From Acidobacteriota bacterium (GTDB lineage Bacteria > Acidobacteriota > UBA6911 > RPQK01 > JAJDTT01): a stretch of DNA of 64,000 nt. Position numbers and translations under genes: made by a program. Each line of letters starts with the position of its first letter. Position 1 is the stretch's first letter. Shown here in pieces: positions 5,886 to 51,082 of this stretch. The stretch covers positions 4,547,661 to 4,611,660 of the forward strand of contig OZ220706.1 in the NCBI GenBank assembly GCA_965116695.1, given 5' to 3'. The notes beneath the pieces were generated by a model. That model did not search any database. It was given only the letters and a program-made list of their open reading frames with translations, and had not been told where the DNA came from.

Positions 5886-6263
5886 TCAGTGGACCCGGCC
5901 GGGTGAGAAGGCTTTCTCCTCCTCGTACCCATGGACCAGGACGAAGAAATATGAAGGGCTCTGGCCCAGGTCCGACTCGACGACCAGCTCGAAGAGGTTC
6001 TCTTCGTTGGTCTCACCGGCCACCGCCTGGACGTAGCGAATCTCCTCGGACTTGATGAAGAGCTCTCCCAGAAGGAGCTTTCCCCGCAGGACCTGGACCA
6101 GCAGAGTGCCGTCCGGTTCGCTGGCGAAATGCCAGTGCAGGTCCTCGTCGTCGTAGAGGACGGCGTTCATGGTCCCCGCCCTCAAGATGCAGTTGGGATG
6201 AGCGTTGAGCCATCTCCAGAAAGCGTCGAACGTCATCGTGAAAGGAGCTTCCATGCGGCTCAT
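5886..6263 (-). CDS. hypothetical protein (125 aa)
   Basis: Clean ORF with ordinary composition. No recognisable motif. Confidence 0.4.
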   Translation of the reverse strand: MSRMEAPFTMTFDAFWRWLNAHPNCILRAGTMNAVLYDDEDLHWHFASEPDGTLLVQVLRGKLLLGELFIKSEEIRYVQAVAGETNEENLFELVVESDLGQSPSYFFVLVHGYEEEKAFSPGRVH

Positions 6264-6312
6264 GGTAACAGCCCGCAGCGAAAATCGTCACGGCATCCGG
6301 CCGCGTTTCCGG

Positions 6313-7557
6313 CTACCGCCGGAAGGCCGTTTCGACGCCCAGATATCCTGCCAGCAGGAAAAAAATAAGGATTGAAGCCAGCACTGCCGAGGTCCAGGGC
6401 CGGTTCCGGTAACGGCTGCCGATCCATCCGGCCCTGCCGTTCATGCGCAGCAACGCGGCCGCCAGCATGGGGACGAAGAGCACTCCCACGATGGCGTAGG
6501 TCTTCTGCATCCGGGCGAACCCGACCCACAGACCCACCATCGGAATCGTGGCCATGGCATACATGGCTCCCCGGTAGATCCGGGAGTCGGGATCTACTCG
6601 GCGGCGGCGACTTGTCCCCTTGGCGCCCATCAGGGAGGTCAGATCCGTGAACAGGTACGGAATCGCCTGCCAGGCCCCCAACAGGCTGCTGAAGATGGCC
6701 CCCCACGCTCCCAACAGGAACGCCCATCCTCCCACCGGCCCCAGGGAGTCGGTCAGGCGCTCCGCAAGGCGAATCAGCAGCGTGGCGCCGCCGCCCTGAA
6801 CCTCGACCTGGCTGCCGATGATCACCATGGCCAAGCCGAACAAAGCCGTCACGACGTAGGCGGCGGCCAGATCGAGGCGGCAGACTTTGAGATCCTCGAC
6901 GCCGCGTCGCCCCTCCTCCTGAATCCAGTAGCCGTAGCAGAGAATGGTGACCGTACCGCCCACGCCCCCCATGAGGGCCAACGTCCATCCCAGGCCCTGA
7001 CCGCTCGATTCGGGGATGGCGGGCCACACCAGGCCGGCGATGACCTCCCCCCAATCCGGTGCCAGACGGACGGCGGAAACCACGACCGTGCAGAACATCA
7101 GTCCGATGCAGACCCGCATGACCTTTTCGAAGAGCCGGTAGCCTCCCAAGCGGACCATCAGGACGCCGATCAGGCTCCAGGCGATCCCGTAGACGATCTT
7201 GCCTGTGGCCGGATCGGAATGAAGCGGCAGGAGGGCGTGGGAAGCCACGCCGCAGGCGCTCATCAGCGCCGCCGCCACCAGAAAGCTCCAGACCACCAGG
7301 TATCCCAGAAAGAGGTATTGGATGGGGCGCCCCAGGCGATCCACGGCGCCTTCCAGGAGGGTCTGCCCCGTGGCCAGTTGCCAGCGCGTGATCCCCTCAC
7401 TGAGGACATACTTGAAGAAACTGCCGGCCAGGACGGCCCAGAGGATGGCGACCCCCAGCTTCGATCCGGCGAAACCGGCGGTGGCCAGGTCTCCGGCGCC
7501 CACGCCGGTGGCCGCCACCAGTAATCCGGGTCCCATGATGGCAAGCGGATTTCTCAT
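6313..7557 (-). CDS. Nramp-family divalent metal cation transporter (MntH-like)
   Basis: N-terminal GPGLLVAATGVGAGDLATAGFAGSKLG resembles the Nramp GPG...DPGN...AG motif. Roughly 11 predicted TM segments over 414 aa. Confidence 0.6.
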   Translation of the reverse strand: MRNPLAIMGPGLLVAATGVGAGDLATAGFAGSKLGVAILWAVLAGSFFKYVLSEGITRWQLATGQTLLEGAVDRLGRPIQYLFLGYLVVWSFLVAAALMSACGVASHALLPLHSDPATGKIVYGIAWSLIGVLMVRLGGYRLFEKVMRVCIGLMFCTVVVSAVRLAPDWGEVIAGLVWPAIPESSGQGLGWTLALMGGVGGTVTILCYGYWIQEEGRRGVEDLKVCRLDLAAAYVVTALFGLAMVIIGSQVEVQGGGATLLIRLAERLTDSLGPVGGWAFLLGAWGAIFSSLLGAWQAIPYLFTDLTSLMGAKGTSRRRRVDPDSRIYRGAMYAMATIPMVGLWVGFARMQKTYAIVGVLFVPMLAAALLRMNGRAGWIGSRYRNRPWTSAVLASILIFFLLAGYLGVETAFRR

Positions 7558-32071: not shown

Positions 32072-32985
<914 letters not shown>

Positions 32986-32989
<4 letters not shown>

Positions 32990-34662
32990 ATCTGACCTGG
33001 CACATCGCTCGCAAGGACTTTCGGCACCTGCGGTTCTATCTGGCTGGATGGTTGGGTCTCATGGTTACCATGCAAGTCCTGTCTGGAATCGATCCGTTAC
33101 CGGAAGGGCCAATAGATATAATGCTTTACTTTTGGAGTGGCCTCCTAAAGGTCGTAAAGATATTCTTATTATCGTTGATTGTTTCAAGATTAGTTCACGC
33201 CGACCCGCCAGTTGGCAACACGGCATTCTGGCTGAGCCGTCCCTTATCCGGCCGGAAACTGCTGCTCGGCAAGTCGTTGTTTATCGTAGTGTTCCTGATA
33301 CTACCGACGCTGTTGGTCGAGTTCCTGTTCCTGCGTGTTTACGGAGTGACCGCATACGATATCTTGCGCTCCGTTCCGCAACTCCTTTTCTGGCAACTTC
33401 TGTACATATCGATTCTCATGATGCTGGCGGCATTGACAAGAAGCCTTCCTCGAATGATCGTGCTGGGTCTCTTCGTCTTTGTCGCTATTCCTTGGGTCTG
33501 CATGACGTTGCCCATGGTGCTCCGCCATTTGGTCTTTAGACCCGAACTTCTGCCGCCTCTGACCCTCTCGACTTCGAAATGGATCGGTTTCAGTCTCGGT
33601 TTGCTCTCGGTCGCCGGAATCGTCGTCTGGCAGCAATACATAACTCGACGGACAGTGATCAGCGGGATCTTTCTTGTTGCAGCAGTGTTCGTTTCCTGCG
33701 CACTGCCTTGGATATGGAGTTGGGACTTCGTAGGTCGACTACAAGAGGTATACGGAGACGTCTTGGATGTCGAACAGGTGGCGACACGGATCGACGAACA
33801 GAGCTTGACCTTAGATCGAGATGGTCAAGGAAGACGACTAATGGACGGCCAGATGATCCTCCAAGGAAGACTTGTTCTGGGGAATATTCCTTACGATCTG
33901 GTCGTGGTACCGGAACGAGTCATCTCGACTCCATATTTTCGGGAAAAAAGCCGATTCATAGATGAACATCGCAATCCTTATGTTCCCATAGAAGTTCCTG
34001 AGTGGGAAAGTACGCGTACAAAGCCTCCAGTACACCAAGAGAGGCTTGAGTCTATGTCAACCGCCGTCGGTGGGGCACGTTTTTTGGACGCCGAACGCAA
34101 CGTACACGCCAAGTATCTGCCGGACCTATTGAGCATTAGCGATGAAAATTATCAACGTTACGGAGGAAGGGCTACGGACTTGGTCATGGACGTGGACTTT
34201 CTGGTCCAGAAGGACCAATTCGCTACGATCCAATTGGTGAAAGGAGAGCGCTACAATGGTGGCTCCGACCACGCGAGAATCCTCGAAGTAGAGTTCGGAA
34301 AGCGTAACGTAAGTATTGAATTGGAGGAGTCACGACATCGGTTGGTGCACGATCACATAAAAAGCCGTCAGTACTTTCTGCACAATAAGGCGAGGCGCGA
34401 AGCGCTGTTGGGAGAAGAATCCGATTTCTCGCTTGGCGGCTTTTTCTTTGATTCCTTCTTGCCCCCAATGTCGTACTTTCCGGTGATGTTGAAAATAACG
34501 CGGACAACACTGTCGTTTGAATTGCCTTCAGAAAGTGTTCCGGCCCAACAGGATTGGTTCCAAGACGCTGAGTTGGTGCGAGTCGGAACCGAAACGCTCG
34601 GACGATTCTCGAGATTAGTTCGATTGGATGACGTCGTGTTTCAGAGAATTCCACGATCGTGA
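32986..34662 (+). CDS. large membrane protein, paralog A (N-terminal ~6-TM domain + ~300-aa extracytoplasmic C-terminal domain), putative ABC-2-type permease component
   Basis: ATGA overlap with the ATPase stop. N-terminus MNLTWHIARKDFRHLRFYLAGW followed by multiple TM helices. Markedly lower GC (~48-50%) than its surroundings. Confidence 0.6.
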
Positions 34663-34717
34663 CTCGATCGGTATTTCGCAATTGTCCGACCAGGTGGTTC
34701 TACGAGGAGAAGGAAGG

Positions 34718-36379
34718 ATGAACCTGGTACTGCATATCGTTCGCAAAGACTTAAGGAACCTGCGTTTTTACCTGGCAGGATGGTTTGGCGTGGTGGTTCT
34801 TCGCGCCACAGTGATCGGATACGGGCCGCTTGACTCCGGCAGATGGGATTTCAATTCGTTTTTCTACTACGAACTGTTGGCCTGGTTTCCGCAGATCTGT
34901 TTGCTGGCAATCATGATCGCGCGCCTGGTGCAGGACGACTCCCTGGCCGGCAGCACGGCGTCCTGGTTGAGCCGGCCGATTTCCGGCGGACAGCTTCTGG
35001 CGAGCAAGTCCCTGTTTCTGGTCCTTACCGTGATTTCCCCGCTCTTCATTGTCGAGCTCCTGCTCCTGGGCATCCACGGCGTGACTCTACGCGATGTCTT
35101 GCGCACTATTCCGCAGATTCTGGCCTATCAACTCCTTCTGACTTCCGTTCTATTGCTGCTTGCTGCGGTGACACGGAAATTGGCACACACGGCATTGTTG
35201 GGTTTGCTTGGCGTGGTCGGTTGGATGTGGTTCTACAATTTTTCCCGCAGTCTCTTCTTCAAACAGGTTGACCTCGGCGACACTTTCGGCATCACGCTGG
35301 CGACATCACGGGAAGTCGCATTCATGCTGAGCCACCTTGCCGTCGCCGGAATCGTGGTCGGTCACCAGTATCTGACTCGGCAGACCGGGAAGAGCACGAC
35401 CTTGGCCTGCTCCGGTCTCCTGGTCATCGGCCTGTTCATGGGGGTCTGGAGTTGGGATTTCGTGGCATCGGCCCAACGGCTGGATCGGACCGTCGTCGAA
35501 CCGCAACACTTGACAGCGCAGATCGAGGAGGAAACCCTGCGTTTCTTTCGACGCGTCCGGTCCAAGCCCTTGAAACGAAGTATGGTCCTGAATGGAAACA
35601 TTGCGCTGGAGGGCTTGCCGGCGGGTGTGTTCGCGCTTCCCGAACAGGTCATTTCACGGGTTTCGTTCGGGTCAACCGACGAATCGCTCTCCAGCAGACA
35701 TGGCCATCCCTACGCTTATGAAGGCGACGGCTTCTGGTGGCGAATCAATCATCTGCCCAGGTTGCATGACGAGAGGGCAACAACCCTCGCAGCGGCTCTC
35801 GGCGGCGTCGCTTTTCTGCACGGCGGTACGAGCCCGATACTCGAATACGTCCCTGAGCTGCTGGAAATCAATGAGGAGTCCTACGATCTCCATGGCGGGT
35901 CTCTCTCCGACTTAAGCGCCAATGTCGTCTTTCTGGTCCAAAGGAACGAAATCGCGACTTTTCCGCTGGAACATGGAGCCCGGTATGACAGGGGATCGGA
36001 CCATGCCGAGATCGTCAGAGTAACTACGGCCAAGGACAGCCTGAGAATCGAACTGAGAGAGTCGCGTCACCGCGTGATCCAGGACCGGATGAAGAGCCGG
36101 TGGTACCTGCTGCGTAACCAATCTACGCGGCAGGCGCTGTTGAGCGAGGGATCTCTTGCCTACGCCGTCTTCACTCCCCAAGCGGCGCCTCTGTCGTTTC
36201 CAATGCTGGGAGTCAGCCATTCGAGTCTGTATTTTTCATTGCCCTCCACCGATCCTCCCGTCGATCCCCACTGGTTTGAGGACGCCGAGCTGGTCCGAAT
36301 CGAGACCAGGAATCTCGGCCGCTTCTCCAAGACGATCCGAATCGAGAACCTCGTACTCAAAGACATTCCCGGTCCCTGA
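34718..36379 (+). CDS. large membrane protein, paralog B (same architecture as paralog A)
   Basis: N-terminus MNLVLHIVRKDLRNLRFYLAGW. Collinear similarity to paralog A along the whole length, including the C-terminal ...WF(Q/E)DAELVR(V/I).T..LGRFS... GC is near the genome average. Confidence 0.6.
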   Translation: MNLVLHIVRKDLRNLRFYLAGWFGVVVLRATVIGYGPLDSGRWDFNSFFYYELLAWFPQICLLAIMIARLVQDDSLAGSTASWLSRPISGGQLLASKSLFLVLTVISPLFIVELLLLGIHGVTLRDVLRTIPQILAYQLLLTSVLLLLAAVTRKLAHTALLGLLGVVGWMWFYNFSRSLFFKQVDLGDTFGITLATSREVAFMLSHLAVAGIVVGHQYLTRQTGKSTTLACSGLLVIGLFMGVWSWDFVASAQRLDRTVVEPQHLTAQIEEETLRFFRRVRSKPLKRSMVLNGNIALEGLPAGVFALPEQVISRVSFGSTDESLSSRHGHPYAYEGDGFWWRINHLPRLHDERATTLAAALGGVAFLHGGTSPILEYVPELLEINEESYDLHGGSLSDLSANVVFLVQRNEIATFPLEHGARYDRGSDHAEIVRVTTAKDSLRIELRESRHRVIQDRMKSRWYLLRNQSTRQALLSEGSLAYAVFTPQAAPLSFPMLGVSHSSLYFSLPSTDPPVDPHWFEDAELVRIETRNLGRFSKTIRIENLVLKDIPGP

Positions 36380-43602: not shown

Positions 43603-44886
43603 ATGTCCCTGGAACTGCGAAACCGGATCTTTCAGCAATTGGACTCGGTGTGGCTCATCGATCCCCACACCCACATCGACCCTCACCGGCCCGCCGCCGA
43701 GACGCTGGCCGACATCCTGGGATACCACTACTACACGGAGCTGGCGCACTCCGCCGGCATGCCCCGGGAGGAGATCGAAGAGCCGGGGACTGGTCCCAGG
43801 GAAAAGACCAGGCGGCTGATCGCCAATCTGGGGCCCGTGGAAAACACGGTCCAGTACAGTTGGCTGGTGGAGATGGCCCAGTCGCTGTTCGGCTTCGACG
43901 GCGACCGGATCACGCCGGACAACTGGGAGGCGCTCTACGATACGTCCAAGCGCCTCATGTCCTCGCCGACCTGGGAACAGGACGTGCTCCGGAGGAGCCG
44001 GCTCCGGCGCGTGTTCCTGACCAGCGACTTCGACGATCCCCTGGAGGGGTTCGACACGGAGTTGTACATTCCCTGTCTGAGGACCGACGACCTGGTGTTC
44101 GGCCTCGCCGATCCTGCCGTGCGGGGGCGCCTGGAAAAAGCGTCCCGGATCTCCGTCCACGACCCCGCAGCCTTGCGGAGAGCCCTTGGCTCCCTCTTCC
44201 AGCACTTCGTCTCCCGCAACGCCCGCGCCGCCGCGATCTCGCTGCCGCCCGATTTCACTCCTGCGAAAGTCTCCGGGCGAGAGGCCGCGGCCGCTCTGGA
44301 CAGCATTCTGCTGGGCGGAGAAGGGGGCGGACTCCGCGCGCGCCAATCGTTGTCCCATTTCGTTTTCTGGACTCTGGCCGAGTTCTGCGCCGAGTTCCGG
44401 CTGCCCTTCGACCTGATGATCGGTGTCAACCGGGGCGTTTACGAGGCGGGGGTCTTCCAGGGGCAGGACCTGTATGACAGCCGCGTCTCCCTGATCCAGT
44501 ACCGCGAACTGTTCAACGCCTTTCCCCGTGTGACTTTTCCCGTCTCGGTGCTGGCCAGCGTCACGAATCAGGAGCTGACCAGCTACGCCTGGATCTTCCC
44601 CAACGTGGTGACCCACGGGCATTGGTGGTACTCCAACGCCCCGGCCTTCCTGGAAGGAGATCTGGCGGCCCGGCTGGAGACCGTGCCGGCGACCAAGCAG
44701 ATCGGGTACTACAGCGACATGTACAAACTGGAGTTCGCCCTGCCCAAGTTCGCCATTTACAAGCGGACCCTGGCCAAGGTGCTGGCCGAGCGGTTCGTCA
44801 TCGATCGCGGTTGGTCGGAAGTTCGAGCCTTGGAACTGGGACGGCAGGTGTTGCGCGGCAACGTCGACGCCATCTTCGGACTGTAG
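43603..44886 (+). CDS. uxaC: glucuronate (uronate) isomerase-like protein
   Basis: N-terminal LIDPHTHIDPH is similar to the UxaC DYHCHL region. C-terminal THGHWWYSN resembles the UxaC GSGWWFND motif. 427 aa. Confidence 0.55.
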   Translation: MSLELRNRIFQQLDSVWLIDPHTHIDPHRPAAETLADILGYHYYTELAHSAGMPREEIEEPGTGPREKTRRLIANLGPVENTVQYSWLVEMAQSLFGFDGDRITPDNWEALYDTSKRLMSSPTWEQDVLRRSRLRRVFLTSDFDDPLEGFDTELYIPCLRTDDLVFGLADPAVRGRLEKASRISVHDPAALRRALGSLFQHFVSRNARAAAISLPPDFTPAKVSGREAAAALDSILLGGEGGGLRARQSLSHFVFWTLAEFCAEFRLPFDLMIGVNRGVYEAGVFQGQDLYDSRVSLIQYRELFNAFPRVTFPVSVLASVTNQELTSYAWIFPNVVTHGHWWYSNAPAFLEGDLAARLETVPATKQIGYYSDMYKLEFALPKFAIYKRTLAKVLAERFVIDRGWSEVRALELGRQVLRGNVDAIFGL

Positions 44887-44908
44887 GAGGGGACTTTCCT
44901 GTCCCCCC
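44886..44908. repeat. hairpin repeat AGGAGGGGACTTTCCTGTCCCCCC (copy 2)
   Basis: Follows the uxaC-like stop immediately. A copy of the 22575..22596 element; it may also act as a terminator hairpin. Confidence 0.6.
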
Positions 44909-44921
44909 TGTTCACCGCCGA

Positions 44922-45970
44922 CTAATAGCCCACAGCCTCCACCGGCTCCGGTTTCGGGAGGTCCACCTTGGCCAGGTAGACGCTCGTCTTTCCCTCGTGG
45001 GTCGAGTAATAGCTCATCCAGAGCAGCCCCTCGTGCCACACCATCCCGGGATAGCTGGTATCGCCGCCGGAGGGGAGCCGAAGCAGCTCGGACACGGTCC
45101 CGGTCTCGAGGTCCACCGACCAGAGGAGGGTTCTTCTGTCCCCGTCGGGCAGATAGAGCCGTCCCGCGGCCACCAGGCGCCCGTCGGGGAGGGAGATCAG
45201 GTTGGGCCCGCCGATGCGCTGCCCCGAATCCTTCCAGTTCCACAGTGTGTAGGGCGGTTCCGAAACGCCGATCTGGGCCGAATTGTCAGGCTTTCCATCC
45301 CGCCGCAACAGGCAGACCGCCGTCCCGTCCTCAAGAAAGACGATGGCCGACTCGTTGGGGTAGCCGCGGGCAAAAAAGACGTTCACGTGGGTCTCGTACC
45401 GGACCCCGTCCTGGGTCTTGTAGAGCCGGGCGAATTCCTGCTGGCTGTTGCGATGGCTGTAGGCTTCTCTCGTCGTGTAGCCGACGCCGTAGCCCGTTCC
45501 CTCACGCCAGGACACCCTCCAGAGCCAGAAATCCGGTTCACCCACCGGCTCGCGGGGAGTCCACTCATTCCGTCCCTGGAAAAGGAGACCCAGGGATTGT
45601 AGTTCTCCTGGTCGCCGCCCAACGACTTCCGCTCCGCGGCCAGCAGCATCAGCCTTCCGTCGGGTGTGACGACGAGCTTGGGATCCCTCAGATCGTTTCC
45701 CGGTTCAGGCGGCATGTGGACGGCGGAAGACCAGTTCTCCCCGTCGGCGGAGGTGATCACGCGGACGGAACCGTCATGGGAGGTGTGATCCTGCCCTTCG
45801 CGAAAGGTGCAGTACCACTGGTCCTGGAATCGGACCAGGTCGGTGAAGGCGCTGTGGGGAGCCTGGTCCCAGATCTTCTGGACCGAAACCAGCTTGGCGC
45901 CGGAAGGTCCGCACCCCGCCGCGGCGGCCAGCACCAGCAGCAATCGACAGCAACGGCTCCAACCTGACAT
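44922..45970 (-). pseudogene. BNR/Asp-box lipoprotein (sialidase-like), disrupted by a frameshift near 45540-45600
   Basis: N-terminal part (45970->45383) has a lipoprotein signal LLLVLAAAAGC and an Asp-box SADGENWS. The C-terminal part (45545->44922) continues in another frame. At the junction, the alternate frame reads FSRDG-NEWTPREPVGEPDFW, a second Asp-box, implying a single-nucleotide indel. Confidence 0.55.
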
Positions 45971-46037
45971 TTCGTCTCCTCTTCTCCGGTCCGAGTTGAT
46001 CCAAGACCCCGCGGCCGCAGCAACCCATTGAAAGCAG

Positions 46038-46112
46038 TGGAGCCGGCGAAGGGAATTGAACCCCCAACCTACGCATTACGAATGCGCCGCTCTACCGTTG
46101 AGCTACGCCGGC
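46038..46112 (-). tRNA. tRNA-Thr (anticodon CGU)
   Basis: Reverse complement folds as a cloverleaf: acceptor GCCGGCG/CGCCGGC, D-arm GCTC-AACGGTA-GAGC, anticodon stem GCGCA/TGCGT with loop TTCGTAA (CGT), T-loop TTCAATT, and CCA encoded. Confidence 0.8.
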
Positions 46113-46221
46113 TCCGAATGGAGGAAAGGACACATTATAGGAACAAGTCCCCGGGACTGCCAACGAACCTGAGCCGATCTCCGGTCGGATATCGCATTCC
46201 TCCGTGAAAGGAGGTATCGCG

Positions 46222-46716
46222 ATGTTGAGCTTAAGGATGGAATCGTATCGGACCCAGGTCGTCGCAATGGTTCTGGTGGGGCTCATCGCCCTGCCACTGC
46301 GTGCGGGAGTAATTCCTGGACGTTGGGAGAAGGTCTCGGCTTTGCGCGTGGCATCCCCCATCACCGTGGAACTGAAGGACGGGGATCGAGTCAAGGGTCA
46401 TTACGAAGACCTTTCCGACACGGACGTCATACTCGTGACCCATTTCTCCCGGGCGGTGATTCCCAAGGAGGATATCGAGACGATCACGACTCAACCGGAG
46501 GACCCCCTGTCCAACGGAACCTTGATCGGTGGCGCGGTTGGAGCCGGGGTCATGGGTGTCTGGACCGCCGCAGCATATTCCAAATCGTATTCGCGCGTGA
46601 ATCCATTGGGTGTCTTGATGATGGCCGGCATCGGCTTCGGAATCGGAGCCGGGCTGGGTGCGGCAGGCGACGCCGTCGCGAAGCCTGTGCCAATCGTCCT
46701 CTACGAAGCTCCGTGA
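46222..46716 (+). CDS. small secreted glycine-zipper protein, paralog 1 of 3
   Basis: RBS AAGGAGG 8 nt upstream of the ATG. Signal peptide, conserved VIPGRWEKVS...PITVELKDGDR.KGH...RAVIPKEDIETIT domain, Gly/Ala-rich hydrophobic segment, and C-terminal IVLYEAP. Confidence 0.65.
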   Translation: MLSLRMESYRTQVVAMVLVGLIALPLRAGVIPGRWEKVSALRVASPITVELKDGDRVKGHYEDLSDTDVILVTHFSRAVIPKEDIETITTQPEDPLSNGTLIGGAVGAGVMGVWTAAAYSKSYSRVNPLGVLMMAGIGFGIGAGLGAAGDAVAKPVPIVLYEAP

Positions 46717-46812
46717 AAACCGGGACTACTTCCTGGCCCGGAATTGGACTGCCTTTGCTGGTGAGCCAATTGCCGCCTAGAAATCGCATCTCTCTATGAA
46801 GAAGGAGGAGTT

Positions 46813-47313
46813 GTGATGATGAATTCGAGGATGAAGCCGTACCGGATCCAGGCAATCTCTTTGGCCCTCGCGGCATTGATCTCCCTTCCGTTGCGAGCGG
46901 ACGTCATTCCTGGACGATGGGAAAAGATATCGACTCTGTCGGTGACATCTCCGATTACCGTGAAACTGAAGGACGGTGATCGAATCAAGGGCCATTTCGA
47001 AGGCCTTTCCGCCACCGACGTCTTGGTCGTGACCCACTTCTCCCGCGCGGTGATACCGAAAGAGGACATCGAGACCATTACGATTCGGCCGGAAGACGGT
47101 ATAGGCGATGGTGCCGGTATCGGGGCGGGTGTCGGATTCGGGCTCGGGTCGGCGATCGCCTTGGGTTTGATTCTGAAGCATGGGGGTGGAGACGGTTCAT
47201 TGGCAGCACTCCTAGTGCTCAGTGGACTCGGGGCAGGTGTCGGGGCTGGACTCGGAGCAGCGGGCGACGCTGCGACGAGACCTCTGGAGATCGTGCTGTA
47301 CGAAGCTCCCTGA
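46813..47313 (+). CDS. small secreted glycine-zipper protein, paralog 2 of 3
   Basis: Same architecture as paralog 1; RBS AAGGAGG upstream. Confidence 0.65.
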   Translation: MMMNSRMKPYRIQAISLALAALISLPLRADVIPGRWEKISTLSVTSPITVKLKDGDRIKGHFEGLSATDVLVVTHFSRAVIPKEDIETITIRPEDGIGDGAGIGAGVGFGLGSAIALGLILKHGGGDGSLAALLVLSGLGAGVGAGLGAAGDAATRPLEIVLYEAP

Positions 47314-47366
47314 CCACAGGGAACATTTCTCGCGTGGGCGCCGTTTGGCGCAAGAGAGGTGTTGCG

Positions 47367-47867
47367 ATGATGCGCTCAGAACTGAACTCGATCCGAACCC
47401 TGACAATCTCCGCGACGCTGACAGCAATGTTGTCAGGATTGGCCGGAGCGGAGGTTGTTCCAGGGCGTTGGGAGAAGGTCTCCAATCTGGCTGTGGCGTG
47501 GCCGATCACCGTTGAATTGAAAAACGGCGATCGAATCAAAGGGAACTTCAGCGGCCTGTCCGATTTGAACCTCAAACTCGCGACCTACTCCGCACGGGCA
47601 GTGATTCCAAAAGAGGACATTCAAACCGTTACCATCCGCCCCAGAGATGGCGTGGGCAACGGCGCCAGGACGGGGGCTGCAGTCGGGGCCGGGTTTGTTT
47701 GCGCGATTGCTGCCGCGTACGTGATTGCAGATCGACGTGCGAAACCTCTGTGGGTGTTGTCGCTGACGCCCATCGGGGCGGCAGTGGGAGCCGGGATCGG
47801 TGTGGCTGTCGACGCGGGCATGAACGCGCCGCCAATCGTGCTCTACGAAGCGCCCGAAACTCGCTGA
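47367..47867 (+). CDS. small secreted glycine-zipper protein, paralog 3 of 3
   Basis: Same architecture as paralogs 1 and 2. The start was chosen at the internal ATG after a purine-rich RBS; the ORF is open from 47334. Confidence 0.6.
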   Translation: MMRSELNSIRTLTISATLTAMLSGLAGAEVVPGRWEKVSNLAVAWPITVELKNGDRIKGNFSGLSDLNLKLATYSARAVIPKEDIQTVTIRPRDGVGNGARTGAAVGAGFVCAIAAAYVIADRRAKPLWVLSLTPIGAAVGAGIGVAVDAGMNAPPIVLYEAPETR

Positions 47868-47908
47868 GATGGGTCCGAACGGGGTTTTCCGATCTATATT
47901 CCGGAAAT

Positions 47909-48232
47909 TCAGGACTGGGCTTGCTTGAGTGCGGCCGCCTGGGCCTTGGCGCCCATGTCCTCGGCTTCCTGGATCCAGCCTTTCGCGTGGTAGAACATGG
48001 ACAAGCTGGTGTAGGCCAACGGGTTGTCCGGCTCCACGTCCCGGTAGCGCAGGCCGTACTTGAGGGCCCGTTCCAGGTCCTTGTTGTGGTAGCAGCACAT
48101 GGCCGCGGCGTGCAGGGCGTCGCCGTAGTGGGCGTCCTCTTCCAGCGCCTGGTCGAAGGCGGCGACCGCTTCGTCCATGCGGTCATCGGCGAAAAGGTCC
48201 ATCCCCTTCAGGTAGTGGTCTTCCTTGGACAT
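47909..48232 (-). CDS. small TPR-like helical protein (107 aa)
   Basis: The C-terminal portion of a long GC-shadow ORF has real-protein composition, and paired helices (...AVAAFDQALEEDAHYGDALH...LERALKYGLRY...) resemble TPR. Start at ATG 48232. Confidence 0.4.
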   Translation of the reverse strand: MSKEDHYLKGMDLFADDRMDEAVAAFDQALEEDAHYGDALHAAAMCCYHNKDLERALKYGLRYRDVEPDNPLAYTSLSMFYHAKGWIQEAEDMGAKAQAAALKQAQS

Positions 48233-48375
48233 CGGCACCTCGAAAACATGGTCCTTCACGCCCGGCGTCCAGTCAAGGCGCCGGACCGGGAGCCGCGGCA
48301 TTCCAGCCGCCGAATCTCCCGCCGGCCGCATCCGGCTCCGGTACGGATCGAGGAGGGCCCCCACCAGGGGTGCTC

Positions 48376-49728
48376 CTACAGCCGATTCCCGTCCGTGTCG
48401 TAGACGGATACGGGGCCCAAACCTGCCAGGTCCGCCTCGACCTGGGAACGGTCCGCCACCACCGTGATGACGGTCCGCTCCGGATCCAGATAGGTTCGAG
48501 CCGTTTCCCGGATCGTCTCCGGAGCCGCCTGCCGCAGCCGCTGGACATAGTCCCGGTAGTGGTCTTCCGGGAGGCGGTCCAGACGGCGGCTGACCTCGAG
48601 ATCCGCCACCGAATCGGAAGTCTCCAGGTAGCGGATGAACCGGCCGGTCAGTTCCGCCCGGCAACGGTGCAACTCCCGGGAACCGGGCGGCTCCCGTCGC
48701 AGGCGCTCCATCTCCTTCAGGCATTCCTGCAACGACTCGGCCGCCACGTCGCTGCGCACGTCGGCGCCCATGAGGACGACCCCGTCGCGCCGGTACCACT
48801 TCATGACGCTGTAGGCGCCATAGGTGTATCCCTTGTCCTCCCGCAGGTTCAGGAAGAGACGGGAGCTGGCGCTGCCCCCCAGGACCTGGTTGGCCAGGAA
48901 CAGGGGCGTCCCATCCCGGTGGCCCCGGGGCAGTCCGCGGCTGGCCACGACGATCCGGGCCTGGACCGAATGAGGCCGGTGAACCAGCATCACCCGCCGT
49001 GATTCCGGGGCCGGAGGCAGCGGGGACCGGTCCCGCTCGGAAGCCTCGCCCGTCCAGCATCCCAGGTAACGGTCGGCCAGGCGTACGGCCCGGTCCGGTG
49101 TCACGGCTCCCGAGAAGGCGAGCAGAGCTCCGTGCGGCGTCAACAGCCGCCGGTGCACTCCACGCAACGCGTCGCGGTCCGCGGCTTCCACGTGCGACAC
49201 GGGGAACGAGACTCGCGAATAGGGGTGGCTGCGGTAGAGGGCGGCATGGCTCCGCTCCCGGGCCAGGAATACCGGTTGGGATCGCTGCGACAGAAGGTGG
49301 CTTCTCCACCGGCTCCGGGCCTTCTCCAATTCCATTTCGGGGAATGCCGGGCGCAGCACCAGGTCCGCCAACAGTTCGAGGGCCGGCTCCAGGTACCGGG
49401 CCAGCACCGTCAGGGTGAGCCGGCTCTGCTCCATTCGGACCTGGGTGCCGTAGTGAATGGCCAACTGGTCCATGAGGTCCGAGATCTGACGGGAGTCACG
49501 GGTCTCGGTCCCCTCTTCCAAAAGCTCGACGGCCAGGCTCGTGAGGGCCAGGTTTCCGGTGGAATCGGAGGTGCGGCCGGTGGGCCAGGCCAGGCAGAGG
49601 GAAACCTTGGGAAGGGCGGAATCGTCGACCGTCAGAACTCGAAGCCCGTTCCCCAGGACGGCATCCGGAATTTTTGGATAGCCGGGTGTCGGCAACGGTG
49701 CTGTCGGTGGGGGCTGATCCGTCTTCAT
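48376..49728 (-). CDS. M16 (pitrilysin) family peptidase, non-catalytic partner subunit
   Basis: M16 fold similarity, but the HxxEH zinc motif is absent. Adjacent to the catalytic M16 gene. Start at the internal Met (MKTDQPPPT). Confidence 0.65.
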   Translation of the reverse strand: MKTDQPPPTAPLPTPGYPKIPDAVLGNGLRVLTVDDSALPKVSLCLAWPTGRTSDSTGNLALTSLAVELLEEGTETRDSRQISDLMDQLAIHYGTQVRMEQSRLTLTVLARYLEPALELLADLVLRPAFPEMELEKARSRWRSHLLSQRSQPVFLARERSHAALYRSHPYSRVSFPVSHVEAADRDALRGVHRRLLTPHGALLAFSGAVTPDRAVRLADRYLGCWTGEASERDRSPLPPAPESRRVMLVHRPHSVQARIVVASRGLPRGHRDGTPLFLANQVLGGSASSRLFLNLREDKGYTYGAYSVMKWYRRDGVVLMGADVRSDVAAESLQECLKEMERLRREPPGSRELHRCRAELTGRFIRYLETSDSVADLEVSRRLDRLPEDHYRDYVQRLRQAAPETIRETARTYLDPERTVITVVADRSQVEADLAGLGPVSVYDTDGNRL

Positions 49729-49777
49729 GGCCTGTGATTCACGCGTCTCCCGGGCCGGGCTTTGGACCAACTCCGAT

Positions 49778-51082
49778 TCAACCCTGTTCCGCCTGTCCCG
49801 GCTCCACCAGCAGCAGGGTGCGGTTCTCCGGACGGAAGGTCTCGGCGGCCACTTGCAGAATATCCTCGGAAGTCGTCTCGGCGTACCGGGACCACTCCCG
49901 GTTGATTTCCCCGGCGTCGCCGTAGAACACGGCGTGGTGGGCCAGGATCTCTCCCACGTCCGACACCTTCTCCAGCCGGCGGACGAAACGAAACGCCACC
50001 TGATTGCGCGCCTTTTCCAGCTCCTCCGGAGTCGCCGCCTCCCGGCCCAGCCGGCCCAGCTCGCCCTCGACCAGGTCCAGGACCGGGGCGACCGGGACGC
50101 CGTCCTGAATCTGCAGGAAGATGCCGAACATGCCCGGGCCGCGGTACTGGTTGGGTCCGGACGACAGTCCGGCGACCCAGTTGCGTTCGTAGACCAGTTG
50201 GCGGTAGAGGCGGGAGGAGGAGCCGTCCGTCAGCAGCAGGGCGAGGATGCTCAGGGCGTAGTACTCGGGACTGCCCACGGGCGGCATGTGGTAGCCCATG
50301 ATGACCAGGGGGAGCACGGCCAGGGGGTCCCGGATCGTCTCCCGTTTCTCCTCCTGTTGAGACGGCTCCCGGAATTCCGGCCGTATGGATCGTGTCCGAT
50401 CCGGAATCGGGCCGAAGTAACGGTGGACCGATTCCAGCGCGGCGGCCTCCTCCAGGTCTCCCGAGAGGACCAGCACGGCGTTTCCCGGTCCGTAGTGCGT
50501 CCGGTGAAACTCCCTGGCGTCGGCCAGGGTCGCCCGTTGCAGGTCTTCGACGGCGCCGATGATGGGATGGGCATATTCCCAACTCTCGTAGGCCAGGTCG
50601 TCCAGCCTCAGAAAGGCTCGGCCGTAGGGCCGGTTGTCGTAACTCTGCTTTTTCTCCTCGATGACCGTCTGCCTCTGGTTCTCGAAATTCTCCGCCGTCA
50701 CCTCCAGGGAACTCATGCGGTCCGCCTCCAGCCACAGCCCCAGGTCCAGGCAATTCGACGGCAGCGTTTCGTGGTAGGCGGTGCGGTCCTTGCTGGTGGT
50801 GGCGTTCCAACGTCCTCCCGCCTCGTCCACGTATCGGCCGTGCTCGTTCTTGGCCACGTTTCGGGATCCCTGGAACATCATGTGTTCGAAGAGGTGGGCG
50901 AGGCCCGAAAGTCCCGGAATTTCGTAGGAGGAGCCGACCCGGTAGTGGAGGCTGATATGCACCAGGGGAACGCGGCGGCGGGGCCGCAGGATGACCTGGA
51001 GGCCGTTGGACAGGGTTTCCTGCCGGAACCGGACGTTTGGAATATCCAGGCGTTCCCCGGCCGGGTCGGGATCCGTTTTCAT
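49778..51082 (-). CDS. M16 family zinc metallopeptidase (catalytic subunit)
   Basis: Inverted zinc-binding motif HLFEHMMFQGS (HxxEH) near the N-terminus, and a downstream ...E...YH... region typical of pitrilysins. Confidence 0.85.
   Translation of the reverse strand: MKTDPDPAGERLDIPNVRFRQETLSNGLQVILRPRRRVPLVHISLHYRVGSSYEIPGLSGLAHLFEHMMFQGSRNVAKNEHGRYVDEAGGRWNATTSKDRTAYHETLPSNCLDLGLWLEADRMSSLEVTAENFENQRQTVIEEKKQSYDNRPYGRAFLRLDDLAYESWEYAHPIIGAVEDLQRATLADAREFHRTHYGPGNAVLVLSGDLEEAAALESVHRYFGPIPDRTRSIRPEFREPSQQEEKRETIRDPLAVLPLVIMGYHMPPVGSPEYYALSILALLLTDGSSSRLYRQLVYERNWVAGLSSGPNQYRGPGMFGIFLQIQDGVPVAPVLDLVEGELGRLGREAATPEELEKARNQVAFRFVRRLEKVSDVGEILAHHAVFYGDAGEINREWSRYAETTSEDILQVAAETFRPENRTLLLVEPGQAEQG

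Follow-up and report, generated by a model that had tools for sequence, protein, structure and literature searches.

The 64,000-nt window analysed here (contig OZ220706.1 of assembly GCA_965116695.1, from an uncultured soil-type Acidobacteriota genome) carries three consecutive forward-strand genes, g1, g2 and g3, next to a gene for tRNA-Thr(CGU) (Table 1). An initial annotation, made from the letters of the DNA, had described these genes as tandem paralogs of a small secreted glycine-zipper protein, and this is borne out by open reading frames of 164, 165 and 166 amino acids, whose starts were set by a start codon together with a ribosome-binding site 7 nt before the ATG. The gene calls on L001, a metagenomic contig 99.92% identical to the window, agree with these calls. 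The three proteins are 50-59% identical in pairwise comparison (alignment A1), and at the DNA level the array contains three copies of a 296-nt repeat unit with spacings of 594 and 551 nt. The motifs quoted earlier from the module that the paralogs share (VIPGRWEK, PITVxLKxGDRIKG and RAVIPKEDI) are all present, as is the C-terminal IVLYEAP reported as invariant, with three additional residues, ETR, in g3. The tRNA gene adjoins the array as annotated, but the placement of the genes immediately downstream of it is true in window coordinates only: the tRNA gene is on the minus strand, so g1-g3 adjoin its 5' end, and the tRNA gene and the array are read in opposite directions, away from each other.

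Table 1. Features of the g1-g3 array and the adjoining tRNA gene, in window coordinates
Feature	Position	Strand	Basis
tRNA-Thr(CGU), anticodon CGT	46038..46112	-	ARAGORN; Rfam RF00005 at 69.6 bits
Sigma-70-like promoter, TTGGCA / 18-nt spacer / TATAAT, 11/12 matches	46134..46163	-	Consensus scan, pattern match only
g1 ribosome-binding site, GGAGG, 7 nt before ATG at 46222	46210..46214	+	Sequence; alignment of the three upstream regions
g1, 164 aa	46222..46716	+	Open reading frame with ribosome-binding site and ATG; product identical to database protein P0019
g1 signal peptide	46222..46305	+	
g1 Sm-like barrel	46306..46506	+	
g1 glycine-zipper hairpin	46507..46680	+	
g1 C-terminal strand segment	46681..46713	+	
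g2 ribosome-binding site, GGAGG, 7 nt before ATG at 46816	46804..46808	+	Sequence; upstream alignment
g2, 165 aa	46816..47313	+	Open reading frame with ribosome-binding site and ATG
g2 signal peptide	46816..46899	+	
g2 Sm-like barrel	46900..47100	+	
g2 glycine-zipper hairpin	47101..47274	+	
g2 C-terminal strand segment	47275..47310	+	
g3 ribosome-binding site, GAGAGG, 7 nt before ATG at 47367	47354..47359	+	Sequence; upstream alignment
g3, 166 aa	47367..47867	+	Open reading frame with ribosome-binding site and ATG
g3 signal peptide	47367..47450	+	
g3 Sm-like barrel	47451..47651	+	
g3 glycine-zipper hairpin	47652..47819	+	
g3 C-terminal segment	47820..47864	+	

All three proteins have one predicted architecture, in which a signal peptide is followed by a small beta barrel, a glycine-zipper hairpin and a short C-terminal segment. 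The N-termini, as read from the sequence, consist of a basic n-region and an h-region of 15-17 residues ending in LRA/G, LRA/D or AGA/E (the slash marking the cleavage site), and the alanine at position -1 is conserved in 89% of 265 family members. These N-termini look like Sec/signal peptidase I signal peptides, in agreement with the common signal peptide of the initial annotation.

The structure was modelled with AlphaFold2 for g2, using a 63-sequence alignment (mean predicted local distance difference test score, pLDDT, 84). The model contains the signal helix, a short helix (residues 37-40) directly after an invariant tryptophan, five strands over residues 47-91 (pLDDT 94-97), long helices at 98-123 and 128-154 (pLDDT about 80) and, at 160-164, a C-terminal strand; pLDDT in the final ten-residue block is 92. 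The module previously described as beta-rich has the N-terminal helix and five strongly bent antiparallel strands of the Sm fold, and it is confidently predicted from this model to be an Sm/Hfq-like small barrel. In fold comparisons it matches Hfq, Lsm and Rof best, the PDB Foldseek search returning marginal Hfq matches only, and further small-barrel matches include SH3-like domains, the RimP C-terminal domain and the spore-coat proteins CgeA and GerQ. The family profile also matches the Edc3 LSm domain among PDB sequences (E 2.4e-5), over 30 residues only.

The Gly/Ala-rich stretch, initially described as glycine-zipper or 2-TM-like, is predicted to form a two-helix hairpin with GxxxG repeats in both helices. 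Residues W36, G104, G108, G144, G148 and Y163 are invariant among the 63 members of alignment A2, and across 265 members W36 is conserved in 100%, the four glycines in 97-100% and Y163 in 94%. The C-terminal motif of the architecture is (I/V)(V/L)LYEAP, with a conserved tyrosine. Because the barrel has the only other strands in the model, the C-terminal strand would pair with it. Two natural variants without a hairpin (P0296 and P0300), recovered by a barrel-only search (A6) whose other returns were fragments, retain the barrel and a C-terminal strand ending in ...YETVYEA. The presumed return of the C-terminal strand to the barrel and the existence of these variants together suggest that the hairpin is an insertion between strand 5 and the sixth strand of the beta domain. 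Tandem two-module proteins duplicate the entire unit, which is compatible with each unit crossing the membrane an even number of times. The joining of an Sm-like barrel to a glycine-zipper hairpin is an architecture of which no description was found in the literature.

On the Kyte-Doolittle scale the hairpin helices average 1.45-2.04, and their additive Hessa sums are 1.0-3.4 kcal/mol, values which fall in the range of the ATP synthase c-subunit helices (-0.53 and 3.26), whereas the zipper helix of SlyB, at 4.4, is less hydrophobic. The F-type ATP synthase c subunit, likewise a Gly/Ala-rich two-helix hairpin of similar hydrophobicity, serves as an analogy only: its profile matches are not significant (E 2-4), and g1-g3 differ in having no carboxylate-binding site pattern, a different context and an extra beta domain. 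The inter-helix loops of g1-g3 are basic (SKSYSR, KH and DRRAK) and the hairpin flanks acidic. This charge pattern would fit an inner-membrane protein with both ends outside, comprising a periplasmic barrel, a first transmembrane helix, a cytoplasmic loop, a second transmembrane helix and a periplasmic C-terminus.

None of g1-g3 could be assigned to a family from the DNA alone, and profile searches lead to the same result. Comparison with Pfam and NCBIfam gave nothing above cut-off for g1-g3, and the Pfam glycine-zipper models PF05433, PF13441 and PF13488 gave zero matches at E<=10. Among the 63 relatives, matches below the gathering scores (E<=0.01) were to Gly-zipper_YMGG (12 members), Gly-zipper_Omp (11), the RimP SH3 domain (7), SM-ATX (5), Rick_17kDa_Anti (3) and LSM (a single member, E 0.005). 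The best relatives scored 25.1 bits against a cut-off of 28.9 for Gly-zipper_YMGG, 24.6 against 25 for Gly-zipper_Omp and 20.9 against 24.2 for PF05433. Gly-zipper_YMGG (PF13441) and Gly-zipper_Omp (PF13488) have a GxxxGxxxG-type repeat in common with the family (best E of relatives 1e-5 to 2.5e-5), but these models span the zipper only and not the barrel or the C-terminal strand. The NCBIfam model NF047433, Lepto_7_Nterm, which describes the N-terminal domain of Leptospira LA_0442/LA_0875, also a paralogous family of exported proteins, matches the g2 and g3 barrels weakly (E 0.026 and 0.0021; 14-18 bits against a cut-off of 43). Sm, LSm, Hfq and Rof proteins have the fold in common, but the g1-g3 domain is predicted to be exported, is combined with a predicted membrane hairpin and sixth strand, and gives no LSM match at threshold. 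A PEP-CTERM-like sorting signal (PED followed by a hydrophobic segment) was considered and ruled out, since the motif is not C-terminal and there is no NCBIfam PEP-CTERM match. One member, P0057, carries a precomputed Pfam tag, PF25913.1, which was not reproduced by the local Pfam scan; a newer Pfam release may already have a model that touches this family.

Among known proteins, the nearest to g1-g3 are SlyB, YfgH, OsmB, Pcp and the 17-kDa antigen of Rickettsia (PF05433, 'Glycine zipper 2TM domain'; PDB 7OJF/7OJG). In function the best comparison is with SlyB, YfgH and OsmB, glycine-zipper envelope proteins that stabilise the outer membrane, SlyB also forming rings (bioRxiv 10.64898/2025.12.22.696046). 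Like g1-g3, the proteins of this PF05433 group are small exported envelope proteins with a two-helix GxxxG hairpin that has small-beta-domain strands on either side, often present as multiple paralogs and presumed to have a membrane-embedded, non-enzymatic role. SlyB-type proteins are, however, lipoproteins with a lipobox cysteine, whereas the g1-g3 family is without one: a lipobox pattern scan of 307 family sequences gave two matches, both in h-regions upstream of the AxA site, leaving no genuine lipobox, and g1-g3 contain no cysteine. The domain order also differs, the SlyB hairpin coming after the first strands and the g1-g3 hairpin before the last strand, and the g1-g3 beta domain is Sm-like. 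An hhalign comparison of A2 with SlyB gave a probability of 3.4%. Membership of the SlyB class therefore fails, there being no lipobox, no profile match at threshold, a low hhalign probability and a different domain order. The array does not belong to a named lipoprotein or Gly-zipper_Omp family, the alternative left open by the initial annotation.

The family to which g1-g3 belong is, so far as tested, very large, unnamed and centred on Acidobacteriota. An exhaustive hidden Markov model search of 1.84 billion cluster representatives (50% identity clusters) matched 13,345 representatives at E<=1e-3; the stricter limits of E<=1e-10 and E<=1e-30 leave 3,707 and 98. Almost all have 150-180 aa and align over their full length, and tandem two-module fusions account for 13 of the top 150. 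When GTDB species genomes were scanned by pattern (alignment A3), a search that covers the VIPGRWEK subfamily only, 60 loci were found, every one in metagenome-assembled genomes of Acidobacteriota, one of them labelled Aminicenantes, and the distant members that carry taxon names are Pyrinomonadaceae. Two complete-scale genomes have at least 12 copies each, at six to eight dispersed loci. Dispersed copies of the family occur in unrelated chromosomal contexts, often as singletons or tandem pairs. No paper was found in which Acidobacteria and glycine zippers are combined.

Some of the dispersed copies may adjoin toxin-antitoxin modules. At L063 two family genes in tandem are preceded, at a distance of about 1 kb, by a DUF3368/UPF0175 pair. 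Members P0040, P0045 and P0052 have an N-terminal extension, MGWTIELD...DL.KFD.P.ARRVLA, which we take to resemble the terminal part of a RelE/ParE-type toxin gene, with read-through into the gene of the family.

For every one of the three paralogs, related Acidobacteriota genomes contain separate orthologs with an amino-acid identity of 80-86%. The ratio of nonsynonymous to synonymous substitution rates (dN/dS, Nei-Gojobori) against loci L003-L005 is 0.145-0.282 for g1-g3, with 0.145-0.153 for g1 and 0.203-0.282 for g3, and the flanking genes, which encode M16 peptidases, a TPR protein and a 427-aa protein without a Pfam match, have values of 0.134-0.266. As the orthologs in other genomes are under purifying selection, the array is not a chance feature and artefacts of open reading frame prediction are ruled out. 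Divergence between paralogs peaks in the Gly-rich segment, as first observed, with an identity of 39% in the hairpin against 70% in the barrel. Between orthologs the corresponding identities are 84% and 90%, so the hairpins are conserved within each paralog and the differences between paralogs are old and maintained. The diversification initially proposed thus stands in that the paralogs differ, but it is not ongoing. Ongoing diversifying selection is ruled out by dN/dS values of 0.15-0.28.

The same locus in relatives, which the initial annotation had proposed to compare, varies in copy number. Three copies are present in the window, L001, L002 and L005, four in L003 and L004, where the extra copy lies between the tRNA and g1, and one in L006, where the flanks are 89-93% identical to the window and the equivalent of window positions 46725-47912 is missing. 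The single L006 copy (6001-6480, OZ241897.1) has 65% amino-acid identity to g1 and a dS of 0.76, whereas its flanking genes are 92-94% identical to their window counterparts, with dS of 0.21-0.37, which suggests replacement, turnover or recombination among paralogs and not simple loss of g2 and g3. The changes in copy number are accounted for by unequal recombination between the tandem paralogs. The non-coding leaders of g1 (46113-46221) and g2 (46717-46815) have blocks in common, GGACTGCC...TGAGCC.AT..CCG...ATCGCAT, so the duplication unit took in the 5' leader or promoter; the spacer ahead of g3 is just 53 nt. No regulatory RNA family was matched in an Rfam scan of the array spacers, and no intrinsic terminators were predicted between g1 and g3.

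With moderate confidence, g1-g3 are read here as old tandem duplicates encoding small Sec-exported envelope proteins of one architecture, whose role is most likely structural. Catalysis is unlikely because the conserved residues are glycine, tryptophan, tyrosine and core hydrophobics only. A cleavable signal peptide would take each protein through Sec out of the cytoplasm, after which the hairpin would sit in the membrane, with the barrel and the C-terminal end both held at its periplasmic face. The glycine faces would pack tightly inside the hairpin and possibly between subunits too. The conservation of paralog-specific hairpins between orthologs suggests that each paralog may have its own packing partner or membrane niche, arising by subfunctionalisation or within a hetero-oligomer. 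By analogy with SlyB, YfgH and OsmB, the role could be to organise or stabilise the cell envelope or membrane, or to tether a periplasmic binding module.

Several observations weigh against this reading. The analogy with SlyB and YfgH is one of motif type only, the hhalign probability being as low as given above, and packing inside the hairpin can by itself account for the conserved glycine faces, oligomerisation not being required. Averaged over the whole family, the inter-helix loop has more acidic than basic residues (K+R 0.88, D+E 1.95) and the flanks are basic. In distant subfamilies this speaks against a cytoplasmic loop, and association there may be with the outer membrane or peripheral. 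Some two-module relatives also have C-terminal ends (...VRF, ...LGF) resembling the beta-signal of outer-membrane proteins. That the C-terminal strand joins the barrel as a sixth strand is inferred from the DSSP strand assignment and the hairpin-less variants, and the model of P0243, a natural two-module fusion, is confident for the barrels only (pLDDT 66 overall, about 55 for the hairpins). In the neighbourhoods of more than 55 loci no partner gene recurs and no pathway is indicated; the recurrences there are synteny within L001-L006 and a few unrelated open reading frames (GFO_IDH_MocA and SWM_repeat/fn3). Database names of members offer 'hypothetical protein' and, once, 'snRNP-like protein' (a JGI record). 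The extra tails of the two-module proteins P0243, P0241, P0253 and P0247 (A4) end in ...SVRISVRF, ...VSLQL, ...VRLSLGF and ...VAVRVAF, and beta-signal-like tails of this kind hint that at least that two-module subfamily may be associated with the outer membrane.

The acidic loop, atypical of a cytoplasmic one, and the C-terminal phenylalanine in some two-module relatives would be expected if these were outer-membrane 'nanodomain' proteins of the SlyB/YfgH kind, whose rings would enclose lipids or outer-membrane proteins when the envelope is stressed. The sub-threshold glycine-zipper matches among the 63 relatives, three of them to the SlyB-type model, point the same way, as does the SlyB GxxxG hairpin, likewise inserted between strands of a small beta domain (sequence checked against 7ojf_A), and rings are on record for both SlyB and YfgH (bioRxiv 10.64898/2025.12.22.696046). 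Set against the missing lipobox and the different domain order, this explanation is rather unlikely for g1-g3. A bolder proposal, which we consider improbable, is that the exported barrels form a periplasmic ring atop a c-ring- or SlyB-like ring of hairpins, serving as a pore or as a lipid/protein belt, with g1-g3 as subunits of a hetero-oligomer and the whole as a major, hitherto unrecognised, phylum-wide component of the Acidobacteriota envelope and a new class of envelope assembly. Sm and Hfq domains form rings in the cytoplasm, and eukaryotic Sm rings are hetero-heptameric. The fold matches to Hfq, Lsm and Rof, together with the 'snRNP-like protein' record, could also be taken to indicate cytoplasmic RNA-binding proteins with a membrane tail. 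That is barely credible, as the signal peptide features, with alanine at -1 so widely conserved, would put the barrel outside the cytoplasm, in a compartment not expected to offer an RNA substrate; a single one of the 63 members touches Pfam LSM, and the small beta-barrel fold is common to many proteins that do not bind RNA.

Glycine zippers are also typical of membrane-depolarising toxins (PMC5380434, PMC10240207, PMC12744356), and a tandem multi-copy array of variable copy number, with a GC content at third codon positions (GC3) below that of flanking genes, could be a diversifying arsenal of pore-forming toxins or bacteriocins of the CdzC/CdzD type or of type VI or type VII secretion system effectors. 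This is distinctly improbable: purifying selection equals that on the housekeeping neighbours, the paralog-specific hairpins are conserved between orthologs, and the signal peptide is of the ordinary Sec kind and the Sm-like domain folded. Neither a small immunity-like gene nor a secretion system nor an LXG/PAAR/Rhs carrier was found close by, the neighbourhoods of more than 55 loci show no recurrent partner, and the many dispersed copies in each of the two complete-scale genomes lie in ordinary chromosomal contexts. PADLOC and PHROGs scans of g1-g3 gave nothing at threshold, the one weak match being of g3 to PADLOC BilD (E 0.015), and there are no plasmid or phage matches. The adjoining tRNA, which had been flagged as a classic integration hot spot, raises the further question of whether the array is cargo of a genomic island integrated at tRNA-Thr. 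Its local GC content is 57.5-61% against 64-68% in the flanks, GC3 is 0.65-0.70 against 0.82-0.88 for all neighbouring genes (flanks 43603-51082), and copy number varies between close relatives, L006 having neither g2 nor g3. However, tRNA-targeting integrases insert at the 3' end of the tRNA, whereas here the tRNA runs on the opposite strand and the array adjoins its 5', promoter end. The L001 gene table, covering about 6 kb to each side, lists no integrase, in line with the initial annotation, and the sequence has no att-like or tRNA-derived direct repeats. At least five genomes retain the synteny and the orthologs, and dS resembles that of the flanks; only copy number varies, which recombination between the paralogs explains, and no plasmid, phage or IMG/VR homologs were found. 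Family genes have lower GC3 than nearby long open reading frames at 50 of 56 loci in other genomes, by a crude test, so low GC3 looks like a property of the family and not a sign of recent arrival at this locus. An island origin is therefore very improbable, and the hot-spot suggestion is not upheld. Among the family loci scanned for tRNAs, tRNA-Thr adjoins the array in the syntenic loci L001-L006 only; the adjacency is incidental synteny, with no functional link to the array. The low GC3 of family genes could reflect codon preference tied to expression or to the Gly-rich repeats.

Other features of the window lie outside the array. The sigma-70-like site at 46163-46134 (-), inside the 109-nt spacer between the tRNA and g1, is most simply taken as a putative promoter of tRNA-Thr. 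On the other side of the tRNA, a BNR_2/sialidase-like gene (44922-45971, -) is split in the window into two frames (open reading frames 45970-45383 and 45545-44922) by an indel near 45566. On L001 it is a single gene of 349 aa, the window differing from L001 by nine mismatches and one 1-nt gap, and the split reflects an indel of the assembly or else marks a recent pseudogene. The minimum GC content of the window, 0.51-0.57 at 33-36 kb, falls in a region (32072-36379) with an ABC transporter ATPase gene followed by open reading frames of 567 and 583 aa; one large open reading frame there weakly matches ABC-2 permeases, and the region is unrelated to the g1-g3 array.

Acidobacteriota are among the most abundant soil bacteria, and their cell envelope is almost unstudied. 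The present results describe g1-g3 as probable non-lipoprotein glycine-zipper envelope proteins built on an exported Sm-like barrel, with function proposed by analogy, and their present value is descriptive. The family, unnamed and comprising thousands of 50%-identity clusters, merits a Pfam/DUF entry, and its architecture offers constructs for structural work. If its members act as SlyB and YfgH do, glycine-zipper membrane organisers would extend beyond lipoproteins and beyond Proteobacteria, and if they form rings, these would be the first exported Sm-type assemblies.

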